Shown here: piece after piece, positions 768 through 59,455 of the stretch
Position numbering within the stretch: the stretch's first letter is position 1
Layout of the letters: each line of letters opens with the position of its first letter
NCBI GenBank assembly: GCA_038244055.1
Contig: JBBRTW010000001.1
Coordinates: forward strand, 4,291-68,290
DNA length: 64,000 nucleotides
Origin: Tepidisphaerales bacterium
GTDB lineage: Bacteria; Planctomycetota; Phycisphaerae; Tepidisphaerales; Tepidisphaeraceae
Reading direction: 5' to 3'
Notes under the pieces: model-generated
The model's input: the letters and a program-made list of their open reading frames with translations, nothing else
Database searches by the model: none
Told to the model about the DNA's origin: nothing
Made by a program: the position numbers and the translations under genes

Positions 768-879
768 CGGCAAGACACGTCTGCGAAGAGACTGGTGATG
801 TCCGGGGTCCCCTAACTCATGGCGGCCCCGGGTGTCCTAACGGGCGCGGTTGACCGTTTTTTTATTGGGCTGGTTGTTT

Positions 880-1827
880 ATGCGTATTCTCATCTCCGGC
901 GGCGCCGGGTTCCTCGCTTCGCATCTGACCGACCTCCTGCTTACGCAGGGCCATGAAGTCGTCGGCCTCGACAACTTCATCACCGGCAAGGAGGACAACA
1001 TCCTCCACCTCAGCGGCAACCCGAAATATAAATTCATCCGCCAGGATGTCATCGAAACCGCCCATGTGGATGGCCCGATCGATCGCATCTATCACATGGC
1101 CTCCCCCGCCTCACCCATCGGATACGTCAAACATCAAGTCGCCACGATGAAGGTGAATAGCCAGGGGACCTGGAACCTGCTGGAAATGGCGCTCTCCAAA
1201 GGCGCGCGATTCCTGATGGCCTCGACCAGCGAATGCTACGGGGATCCGCACGTCAATCCGCAGCGCGAAGACTACTGGGGCAACGTCAATCCGATCGGCC
1301 TGCGCAGCATGTACGATGAAGCCAAGCGCTTCAGCGAGGCCTGTACGATGGCCTACCACCGCGAGCGCGGCGCTGATACGCGGATCATCCGCATCTTCAA
1401 CACCTACGGCCCGCGCATGGACCCGCACGATGGCCGGGTGGTGATTTCGTTCATCCGCCAGGCGCTCAACGATGAACCGATGACCGTTTTCGGCGAAGGC
1501 CGGCAAACGCGCAGCCTGTGCTACGTCAGCGATCTGGTGCGCGGAATCAACTTGACGATGGAAGGGGATTTCATCGAGCCGATCAATCTGGGCAATCCTG
1601 AAGAGTTGACGGTGCTGGATATCGCCCGCGAAGTCCGCGAGCTCATCCCCGGCAGCAAGAGCCAGATCGTCCACCTCCCCATGCCGCCGGATGACCCCAA
1701 GGTGCGCTGCCCCGACATCACGCGGGCGCGGCAGGTGCTGGGATGGTATCCAACAGTCTCCCGCAAGGTAGGCCTGGCGAGGATGATCGATTTCTATCGC
1801 GATCGGTTGATGAAGAAGACCGCTTAA
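880..1827 (+). CDS. UDP-glucuronate decarboxylase (UDP-xylose synthase), SDR family
   Basis: Rossmann motif ILISGGAGFLASHL follows the internal Met at 880. GDPHVNPQREDYWGNVNPIGLRSMYDEAKR closely resembles the UXS signature. The ORF-track start at 850 adds a hydrophobic leader and is less likely. Confidence 0.88.
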   Translation: MRILISGGAGFLASHLTDLLLTQGHEVVGLDNFITGKEDNILHLSGNPKYKFIRQDVIETAHVDGPIDRIYHMASPASPIGYVKHQVATMKVNSQGTWNLLEMALSKGARFLMASTSECYGDPHVNPQREDYWGNVNPIGLRSMYDEAKRFSEACTMAYHRERGADTRIIRIFNTYGPRMDPHDGRVVISFIRQALNDEPMTVFGEGRQTRSLCYVSDLVRGINLTMEGDFIEPINLGNPEELTVLDIAREVRELIPGSKSQIVHLPMPPDDPKVRCPDITRARQVLGWYPTVSRKVGLARMIDFYRDRLMKKTA

Positions 1828-1829
1828 AG

Positions 1830-1857
1830 GGTTCAGGGTTCAGAGGTCAGGGTTCAG
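1830..1857. repeat. Tandem heptamer array (GGTTCAG x4, one variant)
   Basis: GGTTCAG GGTTCAG AGGTCAG GGTTCAG begins 3 nt after the TAA stop at 1825-1827. Confidence 0.9.
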
Positions 1858-1869
1858 GAATAGAAAGTG

Positions 1870-1910
1870 ACCGGTGCGGTGTCATCGAGATACCGCACCG
1901 GTTCTGTTTT
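1870..1910 (+). terminator. Rho-independent terminator candidate
   Basis: Perfect 11-bp stem accggtgcggt / accgcaccggt (1870-1880 and 1892-1902), followed by tctgtttt. Confidence 0.7.
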
Positions 1911-2001
1911 GGGGTGTGTGTTTTCATTTCCCGTGAAAGTTGGATTTTGGGCTTTTATATACGCTATAGTTTCAGTACCTTTTGAAACTTAAGGAGCCTA
2001 T

Positions 2002-2625
2002 ATGAATGCCACGAACCCCGTCCTGACCGATCTTGCCGATGAAGCCGAAGTTGCCGTTCCCGCCGTGAAAGCGAAACCGATGACCGCCGTCGAGCAGCGT
2101 CTGCGCGAGGTGCAGGATACGTTCATCCGCCGCTGGGGGGAGATGGGGCAGACCTGGGGGATCAACCGCACGATGGCCGAGATTCACGCGCTGCTCTTCA
2201 TCGTCGGTATGCCTCTTTGCACCGATGATGTGATGGAGCGCCTGCACATTTCCCGCGGGAATTCCTCGATGAACCTTAGGGCATTGTGCGACTGGGGGAT
2301 CATCAAGCGCCTGCACAAGCGCGGCGAGCGCAGGGAGTTTTTTGAATCGCTGACCGATGTCTGGGAGATGTTCTCGATCATCGCGGCCGAGCGCAAACGC
2401 CGCGAGATGGACCCGGTGCTGGAGACGATCAAGCAGTGCCAGGAAATGCTCGGCGAACAGGCCCTGGGCAAAGCCGCCAAACTCGACCCCGTCCAAATCA
2501 CCCGCCAGCGCCTGGCCGGGATGGAAGACTTCATGAAGGTCACCAACAAAGTCTTCCAGCAATTCGTCGGCAACGCCAAGAGCGGGCTGACGCGGGTGGT
2601 GAAGGTGCTGCTGAAGGCGTTTTGA
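2002..2625 (+). CDS. GbsR/MarR-type winged-helix transcriptional regulator
   Basis: 207-aa ORF. RWGEMGQTWGINRTMAEIHALLFIVGMPLCTDDVMERLHISRGNSSMNLRAL resembles the GbsR/MarR wHTH region. Confidence 0.6.
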   Translation: MNATNPVLTDLADEAEVAVPAVKAKPMTAVEQRLREVQDTFIRRWGEMGQTWGINRTMAEIHALLFIVGMPLCTDDVMERLHISRGNSSMNLRALCDWGIIKRLHKRGERREFFESLTDVWEMFSIIAAERKRREMDPVLETIKQCQEMLGEQALGKAAKLDPVQITRQRLAGMEDFMKVTNKVFQQFVGNAKSGLTRVVKVLLKAF

Positions 2626-2630: not shown

Positions 2631-2863
2631 AAGATAGAAGCGAGGAGCGAGGAGCGAGAAGCGAGAAGAAATTCACAGGGGTCGGAAGGGTCGGAAGCCT
2701 GTTACCAGCGATCTTCCCAGTGGAATCGGCTGATTCAGGCTCGCGACCCTTTCTCGTCAGTGAACTGCCGATCGCTCCTCGCTTCCCGCTTCTCGCTCCT
2801 CGCTTCTCGCTTCTCGCTTCTAACTTCTCGCTTCTAACTTCCAACTTCTAACTTCTCCCTTCT
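2631..2863. repeat. Heptamer-array hairpin element (RAGCGAG units facing CGCTYCT/AACTTCT units)
   Basis: The left arm (2631-2668) has about 5 units of (A/G)AGCGAG. The right arm (2773-2863) has 13 consecutive 7-nt units (CGCTCCT, CGCTTCC, CGCTTCT..., AACTTCT...). The arms are complementary. Confidence 0.9.
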
Positions 2864-6861: not shown

Positions 6862-7755
6862 TCATGACGGGACCGGGTGAGTCCGCAGCCATTCGCGGAC
6901 ATCTTCGAGATTCTTAAAATCCAGAATCGCTTCTCCAAGCTCTTCAATCGCCGGCCAGGGCAATACATCAATCGTCTCGTGCAAGTCGGTTGGAAGTTTC
7001 CCGAACCGCTTGGTCATTTGCCGCAAAACCAGCTTCTGCTGGGCCATTTCACCCCAGCCAGTCATGATTTCCATAAATTGCTCCTTGCTGGGCGAAGGCA
7101 CTTGCTCGATCGATGCCTTGAATACCTTAGCCTCCGCCGCCGTAAGCTTCAAATACGAATCCATAAATCCGCCCACGATTCGCAATTTGGCGGGGTTCAG
7201 ACGCAATGTGGCCAGGATTCGCAGGCATTCCAGCTTAACTCGCGCCCGATCTTCGAGGGCAATCCGCATCCGCGCCATCAGGGCCGTCGCCACCGGATTG
7301 GGCCTCCGCACATAATCGCGCCAGTTCAGTCGATTGAGCTGGATCACTCGATATCGAAAAGTCAAAACGTCGAGATCGGGAAACGTCAGGCAATACTCCT
7401 CCGGTTCAGCCCTCTGCGGCGACACATAGGAGAACAGCACGATCGGATAGACCGGAAGATTGTGCTTTTCGTGCAGCCGCGCGAAATACTTGAACATGCG
7501 CCGGGCGAAGTCCGTATCGGGCGATGCCTGGGTTTCGACATGGACAAGAAAGAACGCCTCGCTCCCTTTGAACTTCGCCCGCGCCAGGACATCGACCTCG
7601 TGCCTCTCGCCCGAGGTGACATCCGTGAAGATTTCCTTGTCCATGAAGGCGATCGAATCGCGATCGAGATACTGCATCACCTCAGGGAAAAACAGATCGA
7701 TAAAATCCGCAAAGAACGTCGTCAACAGTTCCTTGAACAATCGATCGTGATCCAC
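6862..7755 (-). CDS. Rpn-family recombination-promoting nuclease / putative transposase (PD-(D/E)XK) with DUF4351-like C-terminus
   Basis: The N-terminus MDHDRLFKELLTTFFADFIDLFFPEV, the EVDVLARAKFKG...FLVHVETQ core and the C-terminal LVLRQMTKRFGKLP segment are typical of this family. Confidence 0.7.
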   Translation of the reverse strand: MDHDRLFKELLTTFFADFIDLFFPEVMQYLDRDSIAFMDKEIFTDVTSGERHEVDVLARAKFKGSEAFFLVHVETQASPDTDFARRMFKYFARLHEKHNLPVYPIVLFSYVSPQRAEPEEYCLTFPDLDVLTFRYRVIQLNRLNWRDYVRRPNPVATALMARMRIALEDRARVKLECLRILATLRLNPAKLRIVGGFMDSYLKLTAAEAKVFKASIEQVPSPSKEQFMEIMTGWGEMAQQKLVLRQMTKRFGKLPTDLHETIDVLPWPAIEELGEAILDFKNLEDVREWLRTHPVPS

Positions 7756-10487: not shown

Positions 10488-10664
10488 GGGTATCGGGTAT
10501 AGGGTGTAGGGTATAGGAAAGTGGGGGCGGATTTGAATGGACATTCTCGCCCATAGGTCGCAAACGCGCGCCGTTCCACGAACTGAGAATCCAGAAGTCG
10601 TAACCGCGCATGCATGACCGCGCCTGCCCTATACCCTATACCCTACACCCGATACCCTACCCCC
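10488..10664. repeat. Heptamer-array inverted repeat (GGGTATM units / CCCTAYA units)
   Basis: The left arm (10488-10517) reads GGGTATC GGGTATA GGGTGTA GGGTATA. The right arm (10627-10664) reads CCCTATA CCCTATA CCCTACA CCCGATA CCCTACC. The right arm ends directly at the ATG at 10665. Confidence 0.9.
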
Positions 10665-11708
10665 ATGTCCCGCTACCACCGCCAAATTCTCCTGCCGCAG
10701 ATCGGCCAAGCCGGCCAGGATCGCCTCGCCCGCGCTCGGGTGCTGTTGGTCGGTTGCGGCGCTCTGGGAACGGTCATCGCCGAGCAACTTGTTCGCGCGG
10801 GGGTGGGGCAGTTGACAATAGCCGATCGGGATATTGTTGAGCTGACCAACCTCCAGCGGCAAACCCTTTTCGATGAAAAAGACGCGGCCGAGGGAATTCC
10901 CAAATCCATCGCCGCCGCCCGGCGTCTGTCGGCCATCAATTCTTCCGTCCAAATCACCCCGCTCGTCTGCGATGTTCACTCCGGCAACATCGAGGGATTG
11001 CTGGGCATTTCGGGATCAAATCCGCGACCGGCAATGGACCTGATCCTGGATGGCACCGACAATGTCGCCACGCGCTATCTGATTAACGATGTGGCCGTGA
11101 AATATAGCCTGCCTTGGATTTACGGCGCGGCCGTCGCCAGCGAAGGCCGGGTCATGGCGATCATCCCCGGCCAGACGCCCTGCCTCCGCTGCCTCTTCCC
11201 GAATCCCCCCAGCGCCCACGAGCTCCAGACCTGCGATACCGCCGGCGTTTTAGGCCCGGGGGCGAACATCATCGGCGCGTTTCAGGCGATGCAGGCGATC
11301 AAGATTCTCGTCGGCCAGGCTCCCGAGCAGGCCATGCTGCGGATGGAGTTCTGGCCCTGGCGGATGGGGACAGTTTCGACAATCGATGCCCGGCGAGAAG
11401 ATTGCCCGTGTTGCGGGTTGCGGAAATTCGAGTTTCTCGATTCGGCCGCGGATTCGGCCGTCAGTCTCTGTGGTCGAAATGCCATGCAGGTGCGGCCGGC
11501 CGCGCGTGTGGCGATCGACCTCGACCAATTAGCACAACGCCTCCGGACCGCCGGCGAAGTGGAGCAAACCCCCCACCTGCTCCGCTGCCGCCTGAGCGAC
11601 CCAGCCGGTGTGGTTTTGACGGTCTTTCCGGATGGCCGATCGCTGATTCAGGGCGTTCAGGAGGCCGACCGCGCCCGGTCGATTCATGCCCGCTTTGTCG
11701 GCGCATGA
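10665..11708 (+). CDS. ThiF/MoeB/HesA-family E1-like adenylyltransferase
   Basis: RYHRQILLPQIGQAGQDRL...VLLVGCGALG nucleotide-binding motif. CxxC pairs are present (PCLRC, CPCC). The C-terminal ...VFPDGRSLIQGV...ARSIHARFVG tail is seen in ThiF/MoeB-like proteins. The start is ambiguous (10614 or 10665). Confidence 0.85.
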   Translation: MSRYHRQILLPQIGQAGQDRLARARVLLVGCGALGTVIAEQLVRAGVGQLTIADRDIVELTNLQRQTLFDEKDAAEGIPKSIAAARRLSAINSSVQITPLVCDVHSGNIEGLLGISGSNPRPAMDLILDGTDNVATRYLINDVAVKYSLPWIYGAAVASEGRVMAIIPGQTPCLRCLFPNPPSAHELQTCDTAGVLGPGANIIGAFQAMQAIKILVGQAPEQAMLRMEFWPWRMGTVSTIDARREDCPCCGLRKFEFLDSAADSAVSLCGRNAMQVRPAARVAIDLDQLAQRLRTAGEVEQTPHLLRCRLSDPAGVVLTVFPDGRSLIQGVQEADRARSIHARFVGA

Positions 11709-20262: not shown

Positions 20263-21201
20263 TCAGAACTCCCACCCGATGTTGATGTAAACGCGGGCCG
20301 TGGCGGAATCGGGGGTAATGCCGAAAAGAGGGGCGACATTGATGCTGAGCTGGGGAACCGGCCGCCACTGGACACTGGGGCCGATGAGAATGGACGTTTC
20401 GTAGTTGGCGCGGTTGCCGTGCGTGGAGATGAACTCGACCTTGGTTTCCGCTCCAAAAGAGAGTTTTTCGTCGATGAGGGTATAGGAAATGCCGCCATCG
20501 ATTTCGTAGGTGTATTCGCGGCCGCCGCCGGTTTCGAATTCGCCGACGAAATTCACGCCCCAGTGCCAGCGCGGGGCCAGCTCATCACCGAGCAGCAGCT
20601 TGAATTCCACGCCATCCGCATCGTACTCATGGTAGATATATTCGGCATAGAACGTAGGGTTGCCCCAGATCTTGCCCCAGTCCGCCAGAGCCCAGCGGCC
20701 CTCCAGTTGAGCGCCGTTCTGCCCCTTGCCGGATTCGTCGATATCGAGGCGGTAATAGACATCGACCTGGAAGTGGTAGGGCAGCCCATAGGAGATTTCG
20801 GCCAGATACCGGCCGTTGGTTTCCCCGGATTTAAGAAAGCGCGGGATGAACCAGAGCTCGGCCTCGACCTTGCCCTCGGGGATGACGTAAACGCGCGTGT
20901 TGGGGAATCGGCGCGTGGCGGTCCAGCGCGGCTGGCCGTAGGAGCCGACCCGGTCTTCCTCGCGAAGCTCGGATTTGTTGGCGGTGACATTGACGGGGGG
21001 AAGCTCATAGGAGCGGAGGTGGGCTGGCGCGGGGGCGGGAGCGGCGGATTGGTCGAGCGTGAGTGGATTGGTGAGGTCGAGTTTGTCGTCGGTAGGAGCG
21101 AAGTTGGCGGGCGGTGCGCCTGCGCCGGGATTTTCAGCCAGGGCAGGCAAGACGAGAGCGAGTAGGGCGGCCGCAATGGCCAATCGAAGGGCGCGAAGCA
21201 T
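20263..21201 (-). CDS. Outer-membrane beta-barrel protein (hypothetical)
   Basis: Signal peptide, alternating beta-strand pattern and a C-terminal ...INIGWEF aromatic terminus. Confidence 0.5.
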   Translation of the reverse strand: MLRALRLAIAAALLALVLPALAENPGAGAPPANFAPTDDKLDLTNPLTLDQSAAPAPAPAHLRSYELPPVNVTANKSELREEDRVGSYGQPRWTATRRFPNTRVYVIPEGKVEAELWFIPRFLKSGETNGRYLAEISYGLPYHFQVDVYYRLDIDESGKGQNGAQLEGRWALADWGKIWGNPTFYAEYIYHEYDADGVEFKLLLGDELAPRWHWGVNFVGEFETGGGREYTYEIDGGISYTLIDEKLSFGAETKVEFISTHGNRANYETSILIGPSVQWRPVPQLSINVAPLFGITPDSATARVYINIGWEF

Positions 21202-21280
21202 GGAGTTCCTCCCAGAACTGTGAAAGTAGTAAATACGACTATATCATGCCGAGAATAATCGCGGAAAACGAGTGTTTTGT

Positions 21281-21392
21281 GTAGCACGGGCATCCTGCCC
21301 GTGTTGAGAATTAAGAATTTGGCGAGTTTCTAAAGTCCGAATCTCGCAGACATGGGCAGAGCCTGTCTTGAGCTTGCGAAAGAATGCCCATG
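21281..21392. repeat. REP-like palindromes (GTAGCACGGGCA..TGCCCGTG family)
   Basis: gtagcacgggcatcctgcccgtgttgag lies at 21281-21308. A split copy catgggca...tgcccatgctac lies at 21350-21392. Confidence 0.85.
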
Positions 21393-21447
21393 CTACGGGC
21401 CGCTCATCTGATCCCCTCTCCCGAGTACAGGAGAGGGGGTAAATCTC

Positions 21448-21478
21448 GCAACCAGCAACTAGCAACTCGCAACTATTT
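21448..21478. repeat. Tandem heptamer array (GCAACTM units) overlapping a stop codon
   Basis: GCAACTA GCAACTC GCAACTA TTTC. The CTA at 21473-21475 is the TAG stop of the minus-strand CDS. The same CAACTATTTC junction occurs at 23771-23780. Confidence 0.8.
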
Positions 21479-22696
21479 CTCGGGATGTTCTTTAAGATCC
21501 TTCTGGATTTCCTGAAGCGCCAGCGTGGCGTACGAGGTGACCAGGATATTGCTGTCTTCGAACCATTTCTTGTCGCCCTGCCACGAGCCATCTTCTTTCT
21601 GGAGGGCGGCGATCTTATTGGTCAGGTCCAGACGCCAGTCGTGCTTGTTGCCTTTGGCATCGACGATGATCGGCTCGCCGTAGACGTGCAGGGCGCGGGC
21701 CATCGTGTGATAGTAGTAGTAAAGACCATAGCGGGTCATATCGCCGAGCTTGGGGTCATTGACCTGCATGCCGGGGTTGGCATCGACCGTGTAGTTCTCG
21801 CTGATCCATTGCCAGGCCGCCTTCACCTTGGGATCGTTCCTGGAAAGCCCCGCATAGATCATGGATTTGAGGCCCGCATAGGTCATCGACCCGTAAGAGC
21901 GAATGACGCGCTTGCCATCGGGGCCGAGGATAATCCCGGCCGGCGATTCGCCTTCATTGGCGGGCGAGTAGAAGAATCCGCCTTTCTGGGCTGGATCATC
22001 GCTGGCGAACTTCTGCTCGTTCGTTTCGGTATTGTTCTGGGTGCGGGTCAGGAACTTGAGCGCGGCCTGAAACGCGGGATCATCCTTGGACAGACCGGCG
22101 TTCTGCAGCGCTTCCATGGACATCTGCGCGTTGGAAAGATCAGGCCGGCCGGCGCGGGAATAACCCCACCCGCCCCACCAGACATTCTTATCATCGGCGA
22201 TCTTTTCACCCTTGGGTCCGGGCGGTGTCTTGTCGGTCCACTGGATGCCCTTGATGTAGGCGACGGCGCGGTCGATCTTTTCCTTGTAGGCCGGGTTGTT
22301 GGCGGCCGCCAGTGAGGAGATGGCGATGGAGGTGTTGTAGTTGGCCAGCAGGTCCTGGTAGATCCCGCCGTTATCGAGTTGGTAAGTCAGGAGCTTGTCG
22401 TAGCCTTTTTTGACGAAATCCGCATTCGGGCCGGTCTTGGGGTCTTGCGCGAAGACCTTAAGTGGCAGGGCCGTCAGAGCAGGGGGGTCCTTCTCGCCCT
22501 GCCACCCGCCATCGGGCTTTTGCTGGGCTTTGAGGTAGGAAAGCGCTTTATCGATGGAGGCCTGAACGCGAGCGTCCAGCGCCGGGGCGTCGGCCGCGAT
22601 GGCCGTGCGCGGGTAGGGCAGGGGGTTGAAACTGAACGGGGCGATGATCGAAGCGGAAATCGCGAGAGACAGAAACAATCGGAGCTTGCGGGTCAT
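21473..22696 (-). CDS. Secreted prenyltransferase/squalene-oxidase-repeat protein
   Basis: Signal peptide and repeated DGGW/GGWG motifs (QKPDGGWQG, WWGGWGYS, KEDGSWQGD). Confidence 0.7.
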   Translation of the reverse strand: MTRKLRLFLSLAISASIIAPFSFNPLPYPRTAIAADAPALDARVQASIDKALSYLKAQQKPDGGWQGEKDPPALTALPLKVFAQDPKTGPNADFVKKGYDKLLTYQLDNGGIYQDLLANYNTSIAISSLAAANNPAYKEKIDRAVAYIKGIQWTDKTPPGPKGEKIADDKNVWWGGWGYSRAGRPDLSNAQMSMEALQNAGLSKDDPAFQAALKFLTRTQNNTETNEQKFASDDPAQKGGFFYSPANEGESPAGIILGPDGKRVIRSYGSMTYAGLKSMIYAGLSRNDPKVKAAWQWISENYTVDANPGMQVNDPKLGDMTRYGLYYYYHTMARALHVYGEPIIVDAKGNKHDWRLDLTNKIAALQKEDGSWQGDKKWFEDSNILVTSYATLALQEIQKDLKEHPEK

Positions 22697-23603: not shown

Positions 23604-23641
23604 GGGAGCATTCTAGCGGGGGAATCAGCTTAGAGACAATT

Positions 23642-23780
23642 CGAGTTTCGAGTGAGATGCGAGTGAGTTGCGAGATTCGAGTTATGAGTTGCGAGTCGAG
23701 AAACCGAAATCCTCCACAACTCGCAACCCGCAACTCGCAACTATTTCCGCAACTCCCAACTCGCAACCCGCAACTATTTC
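23642..23780. repeat. Heptamer-array hairpin (GAGTTGC-type units / CAACTCG-type units)
   Basis: The left arm is 23642-23700. The right arm (23717-23780) reads CAACTCG CAACCCG CAACTCG CAACTAT ttccg CAACTCC CAACTCG CAACCCG CAACTAT. The right end overlaps the TAG stop of the bactofilin gene. Confidence 0.88.
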
Positions 23781-24184
23781 GGCCCCTGTGGCTGACCCGC
23801 GGGCAGGGCCGGCTTATTCTGCCCCTGTGGCGGGCGATTCTTGACCGCTTCGGGACCGACCGTGACATGACCGACGAGAATCGCGCCTTCATCGACGACG
23901 AGCCGGCTCGTGCGCAAATCCCCTTCGTAGCGGGCCGATTGTTTCAATTCGATTTTGTCGCTGGCCGTGAGGTTGCCCGTGACTTCGCCTTCAACGGTGA
24001 TCCCGCCCGAATCGACATCGGCCGACATCTTGGCTTCCTTGGCGATGTGCAGTTTGCCGGGGGTAATGATCTTCCCCTCGAACTTCCCATGGAGGCGCAT
24101 GCCCTTCTCGAACGAAAGTTCGCCCTTAAAGCTGGCATCTGGGCCTAAAATGGTCGGAAAATCCTGATTGACGGGGTCAGCCAT
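23774..24184 (-). CDS. Bactofilin
   Basis: Starting at MADPVNQ (24184): ILGPDASFKGELSFEKGMRLHGKFEGKIITPGKLHIAKEAKMSADV..ITVEGEVTGNL is a canonical bactofilin repeat. The tail is Pro/Gln-rich. Confidence 0.8.
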   Translation of the reverse strand: MADPVNQDFPTILGPDASFKGELSFEKGMRLHGKFEGKIITPGKLHIAKEAKMSADVDSGGITVEGEVTGNLTASDKIELKQSARYEGDLRTSRLVVDEGAILVGHVTVGPEAVKNRPPQGQNKPALPAGQPQGPK

Positions 24185-24392
24185 GGTGTGCCTCCTGCGG
24201 AGTACGGGGATTTGAGCAAACCCGGCACTCCATACCGGGCGAGAAGTTGGGCGGATTATATCGATCGAAGGCAGGGCCACAATCGATTGGAACTCAATGT
24301 GTCAGAAATCAGTAGCCAGGGGCGTTGATGCTCACAGAGACCCCAACAGACTCGCCGGGCAATCGCATGTGGCATGAAAAGGGCAACTATTG

Positions 24393-24474
24393 CGAATTTC
24401 GGATTGTGGATTGCGGATTGAAAGGCGGTTTTCAATCCGCAATCCGCAATCCACAATCCGAAATCCGAAATCGG
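24393..24474. repeat. Heptamer-array hairpin (CGGATTG units / CAATCCG units)
   Basis: CGAATTT CGGATTG TGGATTG CGGATTG (24393-24420) faces CAATCCG CAATCCG CAATCCA CAATCCG AAATCCG (24433-24467). A related copy lies at 42326-42412. Confidence 0.9.
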
Positions 24475-24591
24475 TGCGATAGGTGTTACATGCGATGGCC
24501 CTAAACAGACTCTGGCGCGAGCGGACCGACCCTTGACAACCCCCCCCCGCCCGATAGAGTATCCGCCCCAAGGCGAGAGGCCTTTTTCGTA

Positions 24592-24664
<73 letters not shown>

Positions 24665-24699: not shown

Positions 24700-24725
24700 G
24701 GCACCCGGTTTTGGGTGCCTTTTTC
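24700..24725 (+). terminator. Rho-independent terminator after the tRNA
   Basis: Stem ggcaccc-ggtttt-gggtgcc followed by tttttc. Confidence 0.75.
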
Positions 24726-24801: not shown

Positions 24802-24891
24802 AAAACATAAAACATAAAACATAAAGACATAATCATCCTCGAGCCCCATCCGCCCCCCTTGCCTCCTTTTGTTTTATGTCTTTATGTTTTT
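24802..24891. repeat. Heptamer-array hairpin (AAAACAT units / complementary ATGTTTT-type units)
   Basis: AAAACAT x3 plus AAAGACATAA (24802-24832) faces ttttgttttatgtctttatgttttt (24867-24891). Confidence 0.85.
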
Positions 24892-27756: not shown

Positions 27757-27793
27757 GGGGTTCCTTATAGCGGAAAAACTAAAAACCTAAACC

Positions 27794-27951
27794 GTAGCAT
27801 GGGCATCCTGCCCATGTGGAGTGCGCGGAGCATAAAAATGCAGAGCCCAAAACACCAACGCCGCTCCCACGGGCAAGATGCCCCGTGTTACTTACACGGG
27901 CAAGATGCCCGTGCTACTGTGTTACTCACACGGGCAAGATGCCCGTGCTAC
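27794..27951. repeat. Cluster of 4 REP-like palindromes (GTAGCAYGGGCA..TGCCCRTG)
   Basis: Copies lie at 27794-27821, 27868-27887, 27895-27917 and 27929-27951, in both orientations. Confidence 0.88.
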
Positions 27952-29939: not shown

Positions 29940-30018
29940 TTTTTTTGTCTCCTGTCGGGGTCGGGTGTCGCAACCGTCTCCCTTCATATCACGCCGGCGC
30001 GATTCCGTGGTATAATTT

Positions 30019-30124
30019 GTAGCATGGGCATCTTGCCCATGAAACTTGTAGCACGGGCATCTTGCCCGTGTTGAGGGTGTCATGTTGATACTGCTCGCTT
30101 CCACGGGCAGGATGCCCGTGCTAC
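30019..30124. repeat. Cluster of 3 REP-like palindromes
   Basis: Copies lie at 30019-30041, 30048-30075 and 30102-30124. Confidence 0.88.
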
Positions 30125-36285: not shown

Positions 36286-39200
36286 TCATTTCACGACGAA
36301 ATTCACCAGCCGCTTGGGGACGTAGAGTTCCTTCACCACTGTCTTGCCGGCCAGATGGGGCTGGACGCCGGCGTCCTGGCGGGCGGCGGCGAGAATTTCG
36401 GCTTCGGGGGCGTCGGCGGGGACGGTGACTTTGCCGCGGAGTTTGCCGTTCACCTGGACGGGAATCTCGATGGCCGTTTCGGCGAGTTTGGCCGGGTCGA
36501 AGGTGGGCCAGGGGCGGCGGGTGAGGGTCTTGGAATGCCCCAGGCGGGCCCAGATTTCCTCGGCGATGTGCGGGGCGAAGGGGGCCAGCATCAAGGTGAA
36601 ATTCTCGGCCAAGTCGCGCGGGATCGACTCCAGTTTGGCCATCTCGTTATTCAGCTTGATCAGCTCGGCGATGGCGGTGTTGAAGCGCAGGTCTTCGATA
36701 TCCTCGGCCACTTTCTTGATGGTCCGGTGCATCTGGCGATCGATGGCATCGGGGATCGGGCCGGTACTGATAACGACGACCTTCTTCTTCTGGTCCTTTG
36801 ATTCTTCGCCGCCATCTTCATAGTCGCCGACGAGGTTTCGCCAGACGGAGTTGAGGAAGCGGGCCATGCCGACGATATCACGGGTGTTCCAGGGTTTTTG
36901 GGCTTCGAGAGGGCCCATGTACATTTCGTAGAGGCGGAAGGTGTCGGCCCCGTAGTCGCCCACGATGGTGTCGGGATTGACGACATTGCCGCGGGATTTG
37001 GACATCTTGAAGGACCGGGCATCGACCTTGATGGCGGCGTTGGCCTTGAGGACGTAGGAGTCGCCCTGCTTCTGGATCAGGATTTCTTCGATGCGCCGGG
37101 CGAAGAGTTTGACGCCGGTCTGCCTGTGGTAGCCGAACATGCGCACGCCGGCCTCGGTCGCTTCTTCCTCGACATCGCGGACCTCGGTGGCCGAGACCGG
37201 CTTGCCGCCATCGTCTTCGAAAAAGTGATATTCCATCTCACCCAGAATCAGCCCCTGGTTGACCAGGCGCTTGAATGGCTCAGGGGTTGCCACATGACCG
37301 AGGTCAAACAGCACCTTATGCCAGAAGCGCGAGTAGAGCAGATGCAGGACGGCATGCTCGACGCCGCCGACGTACAGATCGACGGGCATCCAGTAGGCTT
37401 CTTTGGCCGGGTCGACGAAGCGGTCGGAGTTGCGCGGGTCGATGTAGCGCAGGTAATACCAGCAGGAGCCGGCCCACTGGGGCATGGTGTTGGTCTCGCG
37501 CGTGAAGGTATCCCCGGCTTTGTCGGTGTAGGCGATCCAATCCTTGACCTTCGACAGGGGGGGCTCGGGGGTGCCGGTGGGTTTGAAATCGACCATTTCC
37601 GGCAGGGCGAGGGGGAGCTCGGATTCATCCAGCGGATAAGGCTCGCCATCTTCATCCAGCACGATCGGGAAAGGCTCGCCCCAATAGCGCTGGCGGGAGA
37701 AGAGCCAGTCGCGGAGTTTGTATTTGATGGATTTGTGGCCGACGCCTTCGTCTTCGAGGTGATCGGTGATTTTCTCTTTGGCGTCGGCCGTCGGCAGGCC
37801 TTCGATCAGGGGGGAGTTGATGGCGATGCCTTCGCCGACGAAACAGGTCTCGGGGTCGGCGGTCCCGGTCGCCGGTTTGACGACTCGGGTGATGGGCAGG
37901 CCGAACTTTTTCGCGAACGCCCAGTCGCGATCATCGTGCGCGGGGACGGCCATGATCGCCCCGGTTCCGTAGCCCATCAGTACGTAATCCGCGATCCAGA
38001 CCGGAATCTGCTCCTTGTTCACCGGATTGATCGCATACGTTCCCGTGAAGACGCCGGTTTTGTCTTTGGAATCGGCCATTCGATCGCGCTCGGAGCGCCC
38101 GCCGACGGCGGCGCGGTAGGCTCCGACGGCCGACTTTTGCGCATCGGTGGTGATCCGCTCGACCAGCGGATGCTCGGGGGCCAGGACCATGTAAGTAGCG
38201 CCGTAGAGCGTATCCGGGCGGGTGGTGAAGACGGTGATGACATCGCCCATGTCGGTTTCGGCGGCGAGTTCGTCTTCGAGGGAGGTTGCGGGTTGCGAGT
38301 TGGGAGTTGGGAGTTGCGAGTTACGCGAGTTGTCCGTTGTCCGTTGTCCGTTGTCCGTTGTTGGTGATTGCTCGCTCGGTCCAACTGACAACGGACCACT
38401 GACGACGGACAACGGACCTTCTCGCTTCTGTTCGACTACATCAAAATCCACCTCCGCGCCGATGCTTTTGCCGATCCAGTTTCGCTGCATTTGCTTCAGC
38501 GATTCGGGCCACTCCACGCTGTCCAAGTCATCGGCGAGGCGGTCCGCATATGCAGTGATGCGCAGCAGCCATTGCTGCATCGGCCGACGCTCAACCGGAT
38601 GACCGTCCCGCTCCGACTTGCCATCAATCACTTCTTCATTGGCCAGCACAGTCCCCAGCCCCGGGCACCAGTTCACTGGAATTTCATCTTTGTACGCGAG
38701 CCGCGAGTTAAGGATTACATCGGCCTGCTCTTCTTCCGACAGCTCGCGCCAGAGCCGCTCGGAGCGGATTTCGCCGGCGACCTGCTCGAGGCCTTCGGTG
38801 GTTGGGTTCACATGGATCGTGAAATCGGGCGCGACGACGTAATTTTCGTTAGCCAGTTCGTTCATCAGATGGGCGATGGGCATCGCCTTTTGCTGGATCG
38901 GGTCGAAATAGGAGTTGAACAGTTGCAGGAAGATCCACTGGGTCCAGCGGTAGTAGCCGGGGTCGGTGGTATCGACTTCGCGATCCCAGTCGTAGCTCAG
39001 GCCGAGCATTTGGATCTGGCGGCGGAAATTCTCGATGTTTTTGCGGGTGGTGGCGGCGGGGTGAACGTTGTTTTTGATGGCATATTGCTCGGCCGGCAGG
39101 CCGAAGGCGTCCCAGCCCATGGGATGGAGGACATTGAACCCTTTCATGCGGTAGAAGCGCGAGACGATATCGGTGGCGGTGTATCCTTCGGGATGGCCAA

Positions 39201-39354
39201 CATGCAGCCCGGACCCGCTGGGATAGGGGAACATATCCAGGATGTATTTCTTAGGCTGATCGGGAGCCTCCTCGGGGTCGAAGGCCCGGAAGGATTTGTT
39301 CTCCAGCCAATACTGCTGCCACTTCTTTTCGATCGCGGTAAAGTTGTAAGGCAT
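36286..39354 (-). CDS. leuS: Leucine--tRNA ligase
   Basis: HVGHPEGY (HIGH) and KMSKSRGN (KMSKS) motifs, the [20 protein letters not shown] editing-domain entry and the YWLEN N-terminus. At 1022 aa it is longer than usual because of an internal low-complexity insertion. Confidence 0.97.
38284..38418. repeat. Heptamer-array hairpin element embedded in-frame in leuS
   Basis: GGTTGCG GGTTGCG AGTTGGG AGTTGGG AGTTGCG ... GTTGTCC x4 (38284-38363) faces GACAACG GACCACT GACGACG GACAACG (38387-38414). It is about 135 nt and is translated as [45 protein letters not shown]. Confidence 0.85.
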
Positions 39355-40398: not shown

Positions 40399-42324
40399 AT
40401 GGAAGAAGCCGCTCGAAAATTCGCCCGCCGGATCCTGATGATTCACCTGGCATTACTGCTGGCGGTGATCGGGATCATCTACGCCGCCTCGCGCGAAGTG
40501 TACGACACGACTCGCGAGCAGGCGCTCAAGCAGGCCGAGGCGCGGCAGTTGATTTTGGCGGGGCAGACCGCCAAGGGGATCGAGGCTTTTTACAAGTCCA
40601 TTCTCAACGACCTGGACCTTCTGCGGCAGGCACCGGCCGATGAGGATGAAGGCGCGGTGACCAGCGAAAAACCCACCACTTCCCCAACCGCCCCGCCAAA
40701 CGGCATCGAACTGAAGCCCTTCTTCCAGTCCCTGATGGGCAGCGACTCCCGCACCGGGAACACGGTGACCGCCCGGCTCTACGCCAGCATCCTCTGGAAG
40801 CAGTTGCAAGGGCGGGTGTCGCTCCTGTTCCGCGTGGACCGCGACCGACTGGGCAAGGGCAAGCTTGATCGCGAGCTTTTGCACGATAGAGGCCCGATCC
40901 AGATGCCCCTGAGCCCGGTGGATCCAAAACAAATCCATCCGCGCGAAATCGTCGCCCGATCCATGGACTGGCTCCGCGCCGTCGATAAGCCCACGATCGG
41001 CCCGTTCCAGCAGATCACGGTGGGGGACAAGACTGAATCCATGAATCTCGTGGCCGTGCCCACGCCCGAGCGCAATCGCCTGATCGTGGCGGCGGTGCCG
41101 ATCGCCTATGCCCAGAAGCGTTTCATCGAAGATCTGAATCGCGATGGCGATTCAACCAACGCGATCCTCGCCGATGAAACCGGCACGATCATGATCGGCA
41201 CCAACCCGCAACTCGTCGGCCGGGAAGTGCAGTCGCTCAAGGACCCGGAGGTGATGCGGCTGGCCACCGATTATGCCGCCAGCCCGACCAAGGCCGTGCG
41301 GACGATCGAGCGCGAGTACGTGCTGGGCGGGCAGAAATTCCCACCGGGGCTGGTCGCCATCGAGCCGGTCAGTGTCGGCGGAAAAAAGTGGATGTTGATG
41401 ATCATCACACCGCTTTCGGATGTGGACATGGTTGTCAGCCAGATCTTCCGCCGCGCGGTGTACTGGGCGATCTTCGTTGTCTTCTCGATGACCGCGATCC
41501 TGGTTTCATCCTCGATCCAGCTCATCCGCGGGCGCATCCGTCTCGAACGCATCCGCCACGATGTCATCAACAAGGAACTCAAGCAGGCGCGGGAAATCCA
41601 GATGGCCTGGCTGCCGCAGCAGGGGGTCTCGATCCCCTCCATCGATATCGCCGCGATCAACCACCCGGCCAGCCATATCAGCGGCGATTTTTACAACTGG
41701 TTCGAGCTGCCGGGCGGCCGGATGGTCGTCACCATTGGCGATGTCACCGGCCACGGCATGTCGGCCGCGTTTCTCATGGCCACCACGCAGTTACTGGTGC
41801 ATACGACCATGCTGCGGCTGCAAGACCCCGGGCGAACGCTGACCGAGGTCAACCGCCAACTCTGCATGCAGGTCTTCAATGGCCAATTCGTGACGATGCT
41901 GATTTGCGTTCTTGATGTGGATGGGCAATCGCTTGAAGTCGCCACGGCCGGGCACTATCCACCGCTGATTAGCCGCGAGGGCCGATTCGAAGGTCTGGCC
42001 ATCGAATCGCAGTTGGTCCTGGGCGTGGAGAAAGAATCGCGCTATCCAACCGAGCGCTTTATCCTGCCGGCTTCGGCCAGCCTGGTGATGTACACCGATG
42101 GCGTGCTCGATGTGCGCTCCCCCGAGGGCAAGCGATTCGAGATGCGCCGGCTGATCGACTCGGTGCATGGCCGGGCGGAATCGGCGCAGTCGCTGATCGA
42201 TTCGATCGTGGGCCATGTGAATCATTTCCGGGGGAACAGGCCCTTGCCGGATGACCTGACGATGGTTTGCATCCAGACGCAGACGCAGCCGGCCGAGGCG
42301 GGCGTGGAGGCGATTGTGGTGTAG
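40399..42324 (+). CDS. SpoIIE/PP2C-family protein phosphatase with N-terminal membrane sensor region
   Basis: Two TM helices flank an extracytoplasmic domain of about 300 aa. The C-terminal region ISGDFYNWF...VVTIGDVTGHGMSAAFLM...LVMYTDGV is PP2C (RsbU-like). Confidence 0.85.
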   Translation: MEEAARKFARRILMIHLALLLAVIGIIYAASREVYDTTREQALKQAEARQLILAGQTAKGIEAFYKSILNDLDLLRQAPADEDEGAVTSEKPTTSPTAPPNGIELKPFFQSLMGSDSRTGNTVTARLYASILWKQLQGRVSLLFRVDRDRLGKGKLDRELLHDRGPIQMPLSPVDPKQIHPREIVARSMDWLRAVDKPTIGPFQQITVGDKTESMNLVAVPTPERNRLIVAAVPIAYAQKRFIEDLNRDGDSTNAILADETGTIMIGTNPQLVGREVQSLKDPEVMRLATDYAASPTKAVRTIEREYVLGGQKFPPGLVAIEPVSVGGKKWMLMIITPLSDVDMVVSQIFRRAVYWAIFVVFSMTAILVSSSIQLIRGRIRLERIRHDVINKELKQAREIQMAWLPQQGVSIPSIDIAAINHPASHISGDFYNWFELPGGRMVVTIGDVTGHGMSAAFLMATTQLLVHTTMLRLQDPGRTLTEVNRQLCMQVFNGQFVTMLICVLDVDGQSLEVATAGHYPPLISREGRFEGLAIESQLVLGVEKESRYPTERFILPASASLVMYTDGVLDVRSPEGKRFEMRRLIDSVHGRAESAQSLIDSIVGHVNHFRGNRPLPDDLTMVCIQTQTQPAEAGVEAIVV

Positions 42325-42325
42325 G

Positions 42326-42412
42326 GGGATTGCGGATTTGAGATTTGAGATTGCAGATTTTGCGCGGGAAATTCAATCCGCAATCCGCAATCGCCAATCC
42401 GCAATGCGAATC
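42326..42412. repeat. Heptamer-array hairpin (SRGATTK units / CAATCCG units)
   Basis: GGGATTG CGGATTT GAGATTT GAGATTG CAGATTT (42326-42360) faces CAATCCG CAATCCG CAATCGC CAATCCG CAATGCG (42374-42408). It starts 2 nt after the TAG stop. Confidence 0.9.
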
Positions 42413-42570
42413 TTCTTTATCTTCACTCAGACAATCGGTTAGAATACTCCCCGGGCCACCGTCATACGGGCATCGTACGATTCTGCGTTCGACCGGGTAG
42501 ATTCTTCGAACAGCTCGCGCCGGGGTGGAGCGGGTCATCGTGTTGGGTCATCCTTTTACGGAGTATTTCT

Positions 42571-46304: not shown

Positions 46305-47831
46305 GTGTCATCCGCCGAGCTCGAAACCATACTCAAAGACCTTCCGCGCCACGGCCAGCGCATCAAGGATCGGCCCTATCGCCAGGTCTGGCGTTTCGAG
46401 GCGGGCGGGAAGGCTTACTACCTCAAGTTCTATCCCCGCCCCGGCTCGCGCCTCAAACGCGTGTTTCGCGGCAACCCCGCCATGCGCGAATTCCTGCGGA
46501 TGCAGTGGCTCCAGAAGGCGAAGATTCCTTCGCCACGGGCGGTGGCGATGCTGGCCGGGTACACCATCGAAGGCATCAAGGGCGATGCTGTGCTTTCACT
46601 CGCCATTGAGCCCTCGATCCAACTCGACAAATACCTCAACGGCTTCGAACTGCTCGGCCAGCGCGCCGCCGATCATCTTCAGCTCTCCGCCAAAGTCCGC
46701 GAACTCGTCTTCTCCCTCGGCCGCGCCGGCTTTGGCCATAACGACCTCCACCTGGGCAACTTTCTCAAGTCCGGCGATGCCGTCTATCTCCTCGACGCCT
46801 ATGCCGTCACCCCCGGCGGGCTGAAGATGAAACAGCTTATGAAGCTCGGCCACAGCGCCGCCCGATATGCCACGCGCGGCGATGTCCGCTGCGCCTGGGC
46901 GATGCTGGCCGAGGGCGCGCCGATGCCGCGCAGCAATGCCACCTCCTCGCGCATCTGGCAAAAGTTCATCGATCAGATCGCCGGCGGCAATCGCTATTTC
47001 GGAAAGATGGATTCGCGAGGCTGGAGCGGATCGTTTTTTCAGCACTGGAAATATCCTTACCGTTGGTCGGCCGCCAGCCAGCTAAATGTTTCCGATGCCG
47101 ATTGGGCGCGGGAATGGCCGATGCTGTTGGAAAAGATGGAATCTGGCGCGTTCGAGGTTCTGAAAACGGGCCGCAGCGGCGATGTTTTGGCCGCGCAGGT
47201 CACGCTGGGCGGGCGGGCGATCGATGTGATCGTCAAGCGCCCGCGTCGGAAGAGGTGGTATCGCTATATCAATGAAATCGGCCGGGGCTCGCGCGCCTGG
47301 CGGGCCTGGAAGAAAAGCTGGAGCCTGGTCACGCGGAACATCCCCACGGCCTGGCCTCTGGCGATCGTGGAGAAGAAGACGCTCGGCTACGTCATGGATC
47401 AGGTCATTATCTGCGAGCGCGTGCCCGGGCAGTCGCTGGCGGTGACCGATCTCGATGCCCTGCCGGGGAGCGAGCGCGATCAGATGTTCCGCCGCTGCGG
47501 GAGGATGCTCCGCCGAATCGAGACGACGGGGATGAGCCATTTCGATTCCAAGTCGAGCAACTGGATCATCTCGCCCGATGAAAAGCGCGGGCCGACGCCG
47601 ATACTGGTCGATGTCGATGGCATCCGGTTCTATCGCTGGGACGCGTTCAGCATCCGCCGGCTATTGAGATCCATGCTCGAACACCCTCAATACACCCCGG
47701 CCGACAGTCTAGCGCTCTGCCAGGGCTACGCGCCATTCACGCTTCTGGAACCTGAAGAAGAATTGAACCACGAAGGACACGAAGAGCACGAAGGGGAGAA
47801 TGAGGTTGAAGAGGATGTCCGCGAGAAGTGA
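46305..47831 (+). CDS. Lipopolysaccharide kinase (Kdo/WaaP/InaA) family protein, two kinase-like lobes
   Basis: GHNDLHLGNFL and SHFDSKSSNWII catalytic-loop-like motifs. The C-terminus is an acidic HEGHEEHEGE tail. Confidence 0.68.
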   Translation: MSSAELETILKDLPRHGQRIKDRPYRQVWRFEAGGKAYYLKFYPRPGSRLKRVFRGNPAMREFLRMQWLQKAKIPSPRAVAMLAGYTIEGIKGDAVLSLAIEPSIQLDKYLNGFELLGQRAADHLQLSAKVRELVFSLGRAGFGHNDLHLGNFLKSGDAVYLLDAYAVTPGGLKMKQLMKLGHSAARYATRGDVRCAWAMLAEGAPMPRSNATSSRIWQKFIDQIAGGNRYFGKMDSRGWSGSFFQHWKYPYRWSAASQLNVSDADWAREWPMLLEKMESGAFEVLKTGRSGDVLAAQVTLGGRAIDVIVKRPRRKRWYRYINEIGRGSRAWRAWKKSWSLVTRNIPTAWPLAIVEKKTLGYVMDQVIICERVPGQSLAVTDLDALPGSERDQMFRRCGRMLRRIETTGMSHFDSKSSNWIISPDEKRGPTPILVDVDGIRFYRWDAFSIRRLLRSMLEHPQYTPADSLALCQGYAPFTLLEPEEELNHEGHEEHEGENEVEEDVREK

Positions 47832-48966: not shown

Positions 48967-49072
48967 AAGACTTCGCTTCCACTTCCACCTTTCGAAACGC
49001 CCTCGGCCGAATAGGCAAGATGCTTCGCTGCGCTCAGCAGGACCTCGGGCGCATGTTTTTTGGGGAATCCAT

Positions 49073-49118
49073 TTGACTTAGACGATCCACTTCGTATAAT
49101 TCGTTAATTCGCGAATTA
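49073..49118 (+). promoter_or_regulatory. Sigma70-type promoter plus palindromic operator upstream of arsR
   Basis: TTGACT (49073-49078), a 16-nt spacer, then TATAAT (49095-49100). A perfect 14-bp palindrome TAATTCGCGAATTA lies at 49105-49118. GGAG lies 7 nt before the TTG start at 49131. Confidence 0.7.
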
Positions 49119-49130
49119 TGGAGATGACGT

Positions 49131-51110: not shown

Positions 51111-51164
51111 CTGAGATCGCATCGAATCGCTGCGCGGGACTCCGCGCGAGAGAGGATGTGGGTT

Positions 51165-56075: not shown

Positions 56076-56136
56076 GGCCCGGCCCGACTCCGCGCCCAGT
56101 CCCGCTCTCTGGCGATGGCGGCGGCTGTCACCTCGA

Positions 56137-59444: not shown

Positions 59445-59455
59445 TGGGCAGAGCG

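Follow-up and report, generated by a model that had tools for sequence, protein, structure and literature searches.

The stretch of DNA analysed here (the window) comprises 64,000 nucleotides of a Tepidisphaerales bacterium (Planctomycetota, Phycisphaerae, Tepidisphaeraceae), i.e., positions 4,291 to 68,290 of contig JBBRTW010000001.1 (assembly GCA_038244055.1), and has a G+C content of about 60%. Its genes were mapped using codon-position G+C and Pfam; among them are those for a leucyl-tRNA synthetase (LeuRS), a bactofilin, a ThiF-family protein and a tRNA-Lys. In and around these genes, about 24 arrays of tandem 7-nt units are distributed over 13–14 loci (Table 1). They are heptanucleotide modules of the type of the short tandemly repeated repetitive (STRR) sequences or long simple sequence repeats (SSRs), and usually consist of 4–5 units (about 32 nt). 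An initial annotation, made from the sequence alone, had listed 13 such loci, all of which were recovered, including the arm of 13 units claimed for one of them (2772–2863, 92 nt, about 13 units). It had also proposed that in most cases a second, complementary array lies nearby, so that the two could fold together. This is the case at nine of the 13 loci, where the partner lies 12–109 nt away and the inverted pairs have stems of 17–30 bp, most of which fold far better than shuffled sequences; five loci are single arrays without a partner arm.

The period was tested on the whole window with Tandem Repeats Finder (TRF) and with a lag-autocorrelation scan of periods 1–30, the latter being compared with 30 second-order Markov shuffles. 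Of the 59 rows returned by TRF, 25 are of period 7; another eight, of period 14 or 21, cover these arrays a second time. In the lag scan, strong segments were confined to periods 7, 14, 21 and 28 (with the only exception of a cluster of repetitive extragenic palindromic (REP) sequences at 27868–27951, with periods 27 and 29), and none was found at periods 1–6, 8–13 and 15–20. Period 7 accounted for eight strong segments in the window versus none in the 30 shuffles, which contained practically no strong segments at any period. According to both methods, the arrays are long SSRs in the sense of Mrázek and coworkers (2007), i.e., head-to-tail repeats of a 5–11-nt unit that are longer than expected by chance, and within the 64 kb the unit length 7 is in excess over the neighbouring lengths. 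Leaving aside multiples of three, 7 was more frequent than any other short period in LeuRS loci of diverse bacteria (1.35 Mb); in viral contigs (1.65 Mb), where periods 5–9 were tested, it was represented by 348 arrays of 172 units, versus 5, 83, 43 and 103 arrays of period 5, 6, 8 and 9, respectively. Together with the comparisons of units given below, these data show that the process is specific to period 7 and indifferent to the sequence of the unit.

The arrays account for 746 of the 11,035 non-coding bases (6.8%) versus 0.26% of the coding DNA. They are present in 9 of the 27 gaps between co-directional genes, in 3–4 of the six divergent gaps and in one of the seven convergent ones; the last is a weak array of two units, and the enrichment between convergent genes that the initial annotation had suggested testing is not observed. 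Eight loci have an array that includes a stop or start codon or is at most 10 nt away from one. Two arrays said to begin 0–3 nt from a stop codon do so 0–1 nt after the stops at 1827 and 42324, and the two stops said to lie inside arrays (21473 and 23774, both of minus-strand genes) are TAG codons embedded in arrays, with the common junction GAAATAG/TTGCG. The description of the arrays as non-coding is correct for most of them, the exception being those at 38280–38417, which are in frame within the LeuRS open reading frame (ORF; 36286–39354, minus strand). Overall, arrays are found in every sort of dispensable DNA (after stops, before starts, in promoter regions of divergent genes and in the part of the LeuRS gene that encodes a surface loop) and persist only at harmless positions. 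Mechanically predicted ORFs run upstream through stop-free arrays (42349–45450, 47800–48966 and 10614–11708), so that naive gene calling would place the starts of the genes for the Met-zincin, the heptosyltransferase and the ThiF-family protein too far upstream.

Table 1. Heptamer arrays of the window and the gene hosting an in-frame insertion (positions in the window; x, number of unit copies).
Feature	Start	End	Strand	Context
Single array AGGGTTC x4.4	1828	1858		Directly after TAA of epimerase gene 850–1827(+); separate canonical terminator hairpin at ~1868–1910 downstream
Left arm GAAGCGA/GGAGCGA x4.7	2636	2668		10 nt past stop of gene 2002–2625(+)
Right arm TCGCTTC/CTTCTAA, ~13 units, 92 nt	2772	2863		Complements 2636–2668 across a 103-nt spacer
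Left arm GGGTATA x4.4	10487	10517		Divergent region, YlbF-like gene (-) / ThiF-family gene (+)
Right arm CCCTATA x4.7–5.4	10627	10664		Abuts ATG (10665) of ThiF-family gene
Short left arm GGTAGAG x2	20169	20183		~2 units only
Right arm TCTATCC x4.4	20213	20243		19 nt off stop of gene 20263–21201(-)
Single array GCAACTA/GCAACTC x4	21448	21475		Includes TAG stop of gene 21473–22696(-), junction GAAATAG/TTGCG
Left arm, GAGTTGC-type units	23649	23696		
Right arm CAACTCG-type, two tandem 33-nt blocks	23717	23780		Includes TAG stop of bactofilin gene 23774–24280(-)
Left arm ATTGCGG x4.6	24389	24420		Upstream of tRNA-Lys promoter-like site
Right arm CAATCCG x5.7	24433	24472		Near-perfect hairpin with 24389–24420
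Left arm AAAACAT x4.3	24802	24832		Downstream of tRNA-Lys terminator
Right arm ATGTCTT/ATGTTTT-type	24867	24891		Complements 24802–24832
Weak array AATGTCA x2.3	26623	26638		Overlaps stop of GH5 cellulase gene; sole array in a convergent gap
Single array GAAGGAT x4.9	36171	36204		5 nt upstream of CYTH gene (-) start (36165)
LeuRS gene, 1022 residues	36286	39354	-	Hosts in-frame heptamer insertion
GAGTTGC-type array, ~6 units	38280	38322		Within LeuRS coding sequence, antisense to gene, read in frame
GTTGTCC x4.7	38329	38361		Within LeuRS coding sequence; encodes 11 residues
GGACAAC-type x5.1	38382	38417		Within LeuRS coding sequence; complements 38329–38361
Left arm GTCCATG/GTCAATT x4.9	39396	39432		Divergent LeuRS/PilZ spacer
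Right arm ATGGACA x3.9	39469	39495		
Left arm GGATTGC/GATTTGA, ~5 units	42326	42360		1 nt past TAG of SpoIIE-domain gene 40399–42324(+); pairs poorly with partner arm
Right arm CAATCCG x4.6–5.5	42374	42412		
Single array CCTATAC x4.4	47839	47869		Same unit as 10627–10664; 7 nt past stop of gene 46305–47831(+)

The arrays embedded in the LeuRS gene are translated into a stretch of 46 residues. The best relatives of this LeuRS (67–75% identity) are labelled Tepidisphaeraceae or Phycisphaerae and include Fontivita pretiosa; the protein itself is on record once, on an NCBI contig of 70 kb. Residues 307–372 correspond to only six residues (237–242) of the Thermus thermophilus enzyme (1h3n), at the entry to the CP1 editing domain, and this loop, whose length and sequence differ in every family member, is variable and surface-exposed. 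A scan for 7-residue periodicity in 120 LeuRS relatives was too insensitive (it detected P0112 only), and exact matching to translated arrays was used instead: peptides exactly translating heptamer arrays were found in 4 of the 120 family sequences, versus 0.15 expected. Examples are the loops with KSEIRNPKSEI (from AAATCCG) and IENRKSKIEN (from ATCGAAA), and in P0112 arrays of GGGTTCA and ACTCAGG are visible in the DNA. Judging from these translations, arrays have invaded LeuRS loops in frame repeatedly. In one related species, three independent assemblies carry identical in-frame arrays; the persistence of the arrays across these assemblies and across LeuRS variants indicates that they are real, heritable and tolerated in an essential enzyme. 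Insertion in frame at a structurally permissive site of a conserved gene is a behaviour like that of the Rickettsia palindromic elements (RPEs), without implying that the arrays are RPEs. The same enzyme shows a second insertion with respect to T. thermophilus (residues 148–217, about 70 residues), conserved in the Tepidisphaeraceae relatives and not derived from repeats. Moreover, a hairpin, CCCCTCTCCCGAGTACAGGAGAGGGG, adjoins the 21448 array (21413–21440), and the LeuRS loops of the relatives P0117 and P0087 contain SPSPGTPGEGRGEG, which resembles the translation of a hairpin repeat similar to CCCCTCTCCCGAGTACAGGAGAGGGG; a second type of repeat may thus enter LeuRS loops in frame as well.

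As far as the units are concerned, the idea that each locus has its own unit needs correction: about 11 unrelated families are present, and three of the units recur within the 64 kb, GAGTTGC at three loci and GGGTATA and CGGATTG at two each. When compared with letter-shuffled heptamers, the families are no more alike than expected, and a kinship among them was rejected, none of the similarities being above chance. The number of coincident locus pairs is five versus about 0.07 expected (by our own arithmetic, from 78 pairs and about 1,170 unit classes), and by chance a genome should contain only about one or two 11-nt seeds of any one unit. The recurrence of units is therefore far above what chance seeds would give, and copying between loci must add to local growth. 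Two independent loci, the arrays 21448 and 23717, share a non-periodic boundary, GCAACTATT, which occurs four times versus 0.19 expected. Common descent was retained for this boundary only: the CAATCCG arrays at 24431 and 42372 do not have the same variant units, and the corresponding conclusion, drawn from the order of such units, was dropped for them. A 23-mer, GGGTGTAGGGTATAGGGTATAGG, was used to examine whether 10627 and 47839 are copies of one element; a scan of metagenomes with it returned at least 120 loci, mostly on short contigs dominated by (TTTAGGG)n. GGGTRTA variants being common in such contigs, a shared variant order is weak evidence for copying between 10627 and 47839. The metagenome contigs in question (L087–L206) contain abundant (GGGTRTA)n interleaved with (TTTAGGG)n and confound searches for bacterial GGGTATA arrays; they probably represent telomere-variant repeats of eukaryotes, presumably algal.

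The comparison with relatives reveals a patchy distribution. The density of arrays is about 24 per 64 kb in the window versus 0–2 per 23 kb in the relatives of the family: the species with a 75%-identical LeuRS (L081) has two per 23 kb, both within its LeuRS, L085 has two, and no array is present in Fontivita pretiosa or at two further Phycisphaerae loci. The orthologous spacer between the PilZ and LeuRS genes carries the GTCCATG hairpin in the window, a single TTTCCGG/TTTCGGG array in L085, an array of octamers of the type CCCCTCAT in L081 (9880–9935) and no array in Fontivita; the octamers of L081 indicate that period 7 is not absolute. In viruses, an array-bearing spacer of about 100 nt is replaced wholesale between two IMG/VR contigs with 98.4% identity. 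The turnover of units in orthologous spacers, anticipated by the initial annotation, is thus borne out, relatives carrying other units or none, and, as judged from these alignments, the arrays turn over much faster than the flanking genes. Complementary pairs of arrays were also detected farther away among the LeuRS loci, in a verrucomicrobial (L071) and a Prevotellaceae (L042) locus.

The IMG/VR collection of viral contigs was probed with six heptamers, each repeated three times. The four units of the window returned 61 (CAATCCG), 76 (GAAGGAT), 15 (GGACAAC) and 7 (GAGTTGC) loci, and the two scrambled controls 16 (ACCTGAC) and 5 (CTACGAC), far below one chance occurrence being expected for any given 21-mer. 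Since the scrambled controls also form arrays of at least three units, it follows that any heptamer can. The claim of a generic process, rather than the spread of one family, is supported by this result and by the unrelated units of the window, and weakened by the presence of the same unit at several loci. Besides the probed units, the 348 period-7 arrays mentioned above were counted as bystanders in the 1.65 Mb of viral contigs fetched. Contigs L242 and L210 were inspected by hand, the automatic sorting of arrays inside and outside ORFs being unreliable because long spurious ORFs cross them. L242 (1–13338) encodes an HK97-type capsid protein and bears 11 arrays in 13 kb, mostly of 32–33 nt; at least six of them lie between co-directional structural genes, 0–6 nt past a stop codon and 2–30 nt ahead of the next ATG. 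In L210, a phage prohead protease (1379–2281, minus strand) contains QSAIRNPQSAI in frame, conserved between two contigs with 94% nucleotide identity. Small ORFs (31–74 residues; P0121–P0221) made of QSAIRNP repeats and annotated, e.g., as "major type 1 subunit fimbrin (pilin)" were retrieved from Acidobacteriota, Desulfobulbaceae, Verrucomicrobiaceae, Bordetella hinzii, Chitinophaga, Chloroflexota and Phycisphaerae; they are almost certainly translated CAATCCG arrays and not real genes. [quoted passage not shown] The CAATCCG array sequence was not found in a literature search.

No formal description of such elements was known to the initial annotation; nevertheless, both an excess of heptanucleotides (PMC4679880, PMC4692102) and paired inverted arrays near gene ends in Xanthomonas (PMC4692102) are on record. 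According to the summaries of Mrázek, Guo & Shah 2007 (PMC4679880, PMC4692102), heptanucleotides are the most abundant class of long SSRs in most prokaryotic genomes, are enriched in large, G+C-rich genomes of non-pathogens and may originate by polymerase slippage, with a contact length of about 7 nt; these summaries are silent on quantised size, inverted pairing, in-frame insertion into housekeeping genes and phages. The GGGAATC/GGGGAYT arrays of Xanthomonas and Nostoc are dispersed and mostly non-coding, and clearly favour a size of about four units (Rehm et al. 2015, PMC4692102). In Xanthomonas, 70–75 cases per genome of convergent array pairs on opposite strands have stem-loop potential, and arrays lie about 50 bp or less from stop or start codons, mainly between co-directional genes (PMC4692102). 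The window shares with Xanthomonas the preference for about four units, the inverted pairs and the location at gene ends, and the G-rich arm comes first in six of the seven pairs with a clear G/C skew. It differs in that about 11 unrelated units, most of them unable to form a G-quadruplex (G4), take the place of one G3 family per genome explained by G4 formation; moreover, most loci are paired, an essential gene carries one of the pairs in frame, and the host is a planctomycete.

Other heptamer repeats show further similarities. Calothrix PCC 7601 harbors three tandemly repetitive heptanucleotides, the STRRs (as cited in PMC4692102). As in these cyanobacterial sequences, several heptamer families coexist in the window, being both tandem and dispersed at many loci, but phylum and units are different, the relatives of the host being Tepidisphaeraceae and Phycisphaerae. 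The units of the STRRs, which we take to be CCCCAGT, TTGGTCA and CAACAGT, are all absent from the window. Arrays of Nostoc may adjoin start codons or overlap with them (bioRxiv 10.1101/2022.06.06.494920), direct repeats of TAACTGA are located just upstream of start codons in marine Beggiatoaceae (PMC4679880), and (GATAGRA)n satellites occur in Chloroflexus (PMC6749651). The Beggiatoaceae and Chloroflexus repeats are, like those of the window, intergenic heptamer arrays of 2–6 units near start codons, patchily distributed across phyla; unlike them, they have one dominant unit per genome, are almost never inverted (one in 170 sets) and are oriented to the downstream gene. REP sequences, the bacterial interspersed mosaic elements (BIMEs) that they form and RPEs (PMC3733652) are also short, dispersed and intergenic, often inverted dimers, strongly variable in abundance among relatives, mostly downstream of genes and at times inside conserved genes non-destructively. 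In contrast to REP/BIME, a single heptamer array is non-palindromic and has neither a GTAG/CGTC tag nor a conserved family sequence, and no REP-associated tyrosine transposase (RAYT) was found to accompany it among the ORFs of the window that were scanned.

REP-like elements are present in the window as a second dispersed family, consisting of at least seven copies of GTAG-tagged hairpins (GTAGCACGGGCATCTTGCCCGTG and variants), some of them in tandem with a period of 34 (21280–21308, 27793–27821, 27885–27951 and 30018–30124). A GTAG-REP class is on record for Planctomycetes and Verrucomicrobia, and the hairpins of the window fit it (PMC3733652). Similar REPs flank heptamer arrays in the viral contigs L207 and L258, and in phage contigs heptamer modules are accompanied by GTAG-type REPs (GTCAGGGCTCGACAGAGTCTCGCCCTAC). 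A 9-nt tandem repeat, GGGTCGGAA (2.1 copies, 2679–2697), lies within the 103-nt spacer of the 2636/2772 pair. No Y1 transposase (RAYT) was found among the approximately 50 ORFs of the window scanned with Pfam, and the same scans disclosed no candidate array-writing enzyme, RAYT or reverse transcriptase. The sole transposase-like gene of the window (6862–7755, minus strand) encodes a YhgA-like putative transposase or recombination-promoting nuclease (Transposase_31 and DUF4351), and its third-position G+C is below that of its neighbours. The last 16 kb (48000–64000) are devoid of heptamer arrays; the region 57–64 kb encodes a NERD nuclease-related protein, an IrrE-like M78 peptidase, a DUF6236 protein and a DNA methylase, and may be a recently acquired island in which arrays have not accumulated as yet.

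With regard to the origin of the arrays, the most likely explanation, in which we have moderate confidence, is a combination of replication slippage and template-switch copying, arrays being kept only where they are harmless. Arrays would be born and resized by slipped-strand mispairing in 7-nt registers, escaping MutS-type repair. In E. coli, loops larger than about 4 nt are poorly corrected by this type of mismatch repair, and quasipalindrome correction is a known mutational process. New copies and complementary partner arms might then derive from template switching, either by ectopic copying between arrays or within quasipalindromes. Selection would purge each copy that breaks a gene and the survivors would be found in dispensable DNA, so that the arrays might be by-products or selfish passengers rather than designed RNA structures.

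Several observations do not fit this scheme well. Simple slippage should give a monotonically falling distribution of lengths, and the observed sizes cluster instead: 16 of the 24 period-7 rows of TRF in the window have 4.0–5.1 copies (median 4.6), and the 348 viral bystander arrays cluster at 25–33 nt, only 24 of them exceeding 34 nt. The copy number does not change at all among three contigs of one species that are 99.8–99.96% identical, which indicates that slippage is not fast, and the encoded array peptides are unchanged across LeuRS variants that are 95–97% identical (3–5% protein divergence). Some units are 4–15 times commoner than others in the viral collection (CAATCCG and GAAGGAT compared with the two controls), the CAATCCG module prefers the form (CAATCCG)4CAAT (32 nt) in contigs of 39–71% G+C with unrelated flanks, and in the structural operon of L242 an array of 32–33 nt occupies nearly each gene gap, which is unexpected for junk. 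The main weakness of slippage lies in the capped size, the constant phase and the orderly arrangement in a phage operon, which are better explained by a discrete module of about 32 nt, or four and a half heptamers, that some factor reads or writes.

Such a module, which bacteria would share with their phages, is possible, although we consider it rather doubtful. The reader might be the 30S subunit, ribosomal protein S1 or a protein with several domains that bind single-stranded nucleic acids, the array being an intercistronic landing pad or processing site; alternatively, a polymerase or recombinase might make or insert about four and a half repeats per event. Besides the sharp cut-off above 34 nt across 172 units, the phase that is constant across unrelated contigs and the strong preference for some units over scrambled controls, a module of this kind would account for the tight setting of the L242 arrays between a stop codon and the next ATG, to which the arrays of the window abutting stops and starts can be likened. 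The G4 account of the four-unit preference in Xanthomonas and Nostoc (PMC4692102) cannot cover the units of the window without G3 tracts, and reporter data from Nostoc hint at regulatory effects of start-adjacent arrays (bioRxiv 10.1101/2022.06.06.494920). However, hundreds of unrelated units are hard to square with a sequence-specific reader; arrays occur in both orientations relative to transcription; many of those in the window are locked in hairpins, whereas a landing pad should be single-stranded; at orthologous positions, close relatives do without arrays and show no visible consequence; and none of the enzymes that might write them (RAYT and reverse transcriptase included) has a candidate among the scanned ORFs of the window.

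It appears unlikely that the arrays act as RNA hairpins at 3' ends, whether as intrinsic terminators, as REP-like mRNA stabilisers or as RNase III sites between co-transcribed genes. Their stems are long and stable, and several pairs start right past stop codons in co-directional gaps; most pairs fold better than dinucleotide shuffles (z = -3 to -8.7), as in the case of 24385–24480 (dG -50 to -52 kcal/mol, z = -7 to -8.7), 23640–23785 (dG -64.7, z = -5.4) and the hairpin of the LeuRS mRNA formed by 38329–38361 with 38382–38417 (dG -51.5 kcal/mol, z = -3.75), the pair 42322–42420 being weak (z = -2.3) and its hairpin decayed. A role in transcription termination and mRNA stabilisation has been hypothesised for REP-type stem-loops (PMC3733652), and a 7-nt repeat in a Haemophilus 5' untranslated region is summarised as acting through RNase III (PMC12721329). 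Nonetheless, at the six loci of known orientation the sense strand folds better than the opposite one in one case, worse in three and equally in two, i.e., it has no folding advantage, five loci consist of single arrays, and the arrays of the window show no sign of RNA-level design. A terminator scan of 19–28 kb, which includes four hairpin loci, flagged none of the heptamer hairpins and matched other hairpins, among which the terminator of the tRNA-Lys gene (24700–24719); by eye, no clear T-run follows the remaining array arms. Rfam matched only the tRNA in the window. The tRNA-Lys(CTT) (24592–24664) has its own promoter-like site (24533–24560) and its own terminator, and the heptamer hairpins flank this unit on both sides, outside it; a further canonical terminator, distinct from the adjoining array, lies at 1868–1910. 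A G+C-rich, short-loop stem followed by a U-tract was not found in the arrays of the window, whose loops measure 12–109 nt, nor was the concentration at 3' ends and in convergent gaps that is typical of intrinsic terminators. The arrays are near-absent from convergent gaps, yet present in 3–4 of the six divergent gaps (promoter regions), next to a start codon and inside the LeuRS coding sequence. The terminator role envisaged by the initial annotation thus fails, and the arrays of the window are not transcription terminators.

The formation of G4 or i-motif elements, proposed for the GGGNATC heptamers of Xanthomonas and Nostoc, is very unlikely as a general explanation. The GGGTATA arrays (10487, 10627 and 47839) and the GGGTTCA array (1828) do yield four G3 tracts with 4-nt loops, and the four-unit preference, the pairing and the gene-end location are those of Xanthomonas (PMC4692102). 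The G3–4 tract that characterises the Xanthomonas and Nostoc repeats is present in these two families only of the approximately 11 in the window and absent from about nine, and CGGATTG, GAGTTGC, GAAGCGA, GTTGTCC, GGTCCAT, AAAACAT and AATGTCA are incapable of forming a canonical G4. The preference for the same size holds equally for 172 mostly non-G3 units; since the cap near 4.5 units exists whatever the unit, G-quadruplexes are not its general reason, and this undercuts the G4 explanation given for Xanthomonas itself. That the arrays are an assembly or sequencing artefact, which might be feared for a contig of a metagenome-assembled genome in which repeats can mislead assemblers, has a practically negligible probability, since they lie within an intact LeuRS frame of 1022 residues, recur identically and in frame in three independent assemblies of a related species, and have counterparts in contigs of many projects and, to go by the names given for the sources of matching proteins, in isolates such as Bordetella hinzii and Chitinophaga niastensis.

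The over-representation of heptanucleotides in prokaryotes has been known since 1990 (STRRs) and 2007 (genome surveys), the cause of period 7 still being a guess, and as of 2015 there was no detailed work on heptanucleotide repeats (PMC4692102). The window adds a new phylum and, with arrays making up about 7% of its non-coding DNA, is an extreme case. What is new here is the quantised size of about 4.5 units (about 32 nt) in spite of the few G-tracts, the modules in the gene gaps of phages and the in-frame arrays of LeuRS. Any explanation has to account for a size cap independent of the unit, for the occurrence in both phage operons and host chromosomes, and for the in-frame carriage in essential proteins, where arrays add disordered peptides to surface loops of proteins such as LeuRS. 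On the practical side, arrays cause spurious or over-extended ORF calls, and could act as strain markers, in the same way as cyanobacterial STRR fingerprinting. Lastly, it is conceivable, and in our opinion slightly more doubtful than the module as such, that the modules of four and a half heptamers form a distinct class, agnostic to the unit and of fixed period and size, that a conserved factor, active in many phyla and in phages, writes or reads. If this were true, such a factor would explain the excess of heptanucleotides in prokaryotes, the preference for four units, and the colonisation of gene gaps and protein loops.

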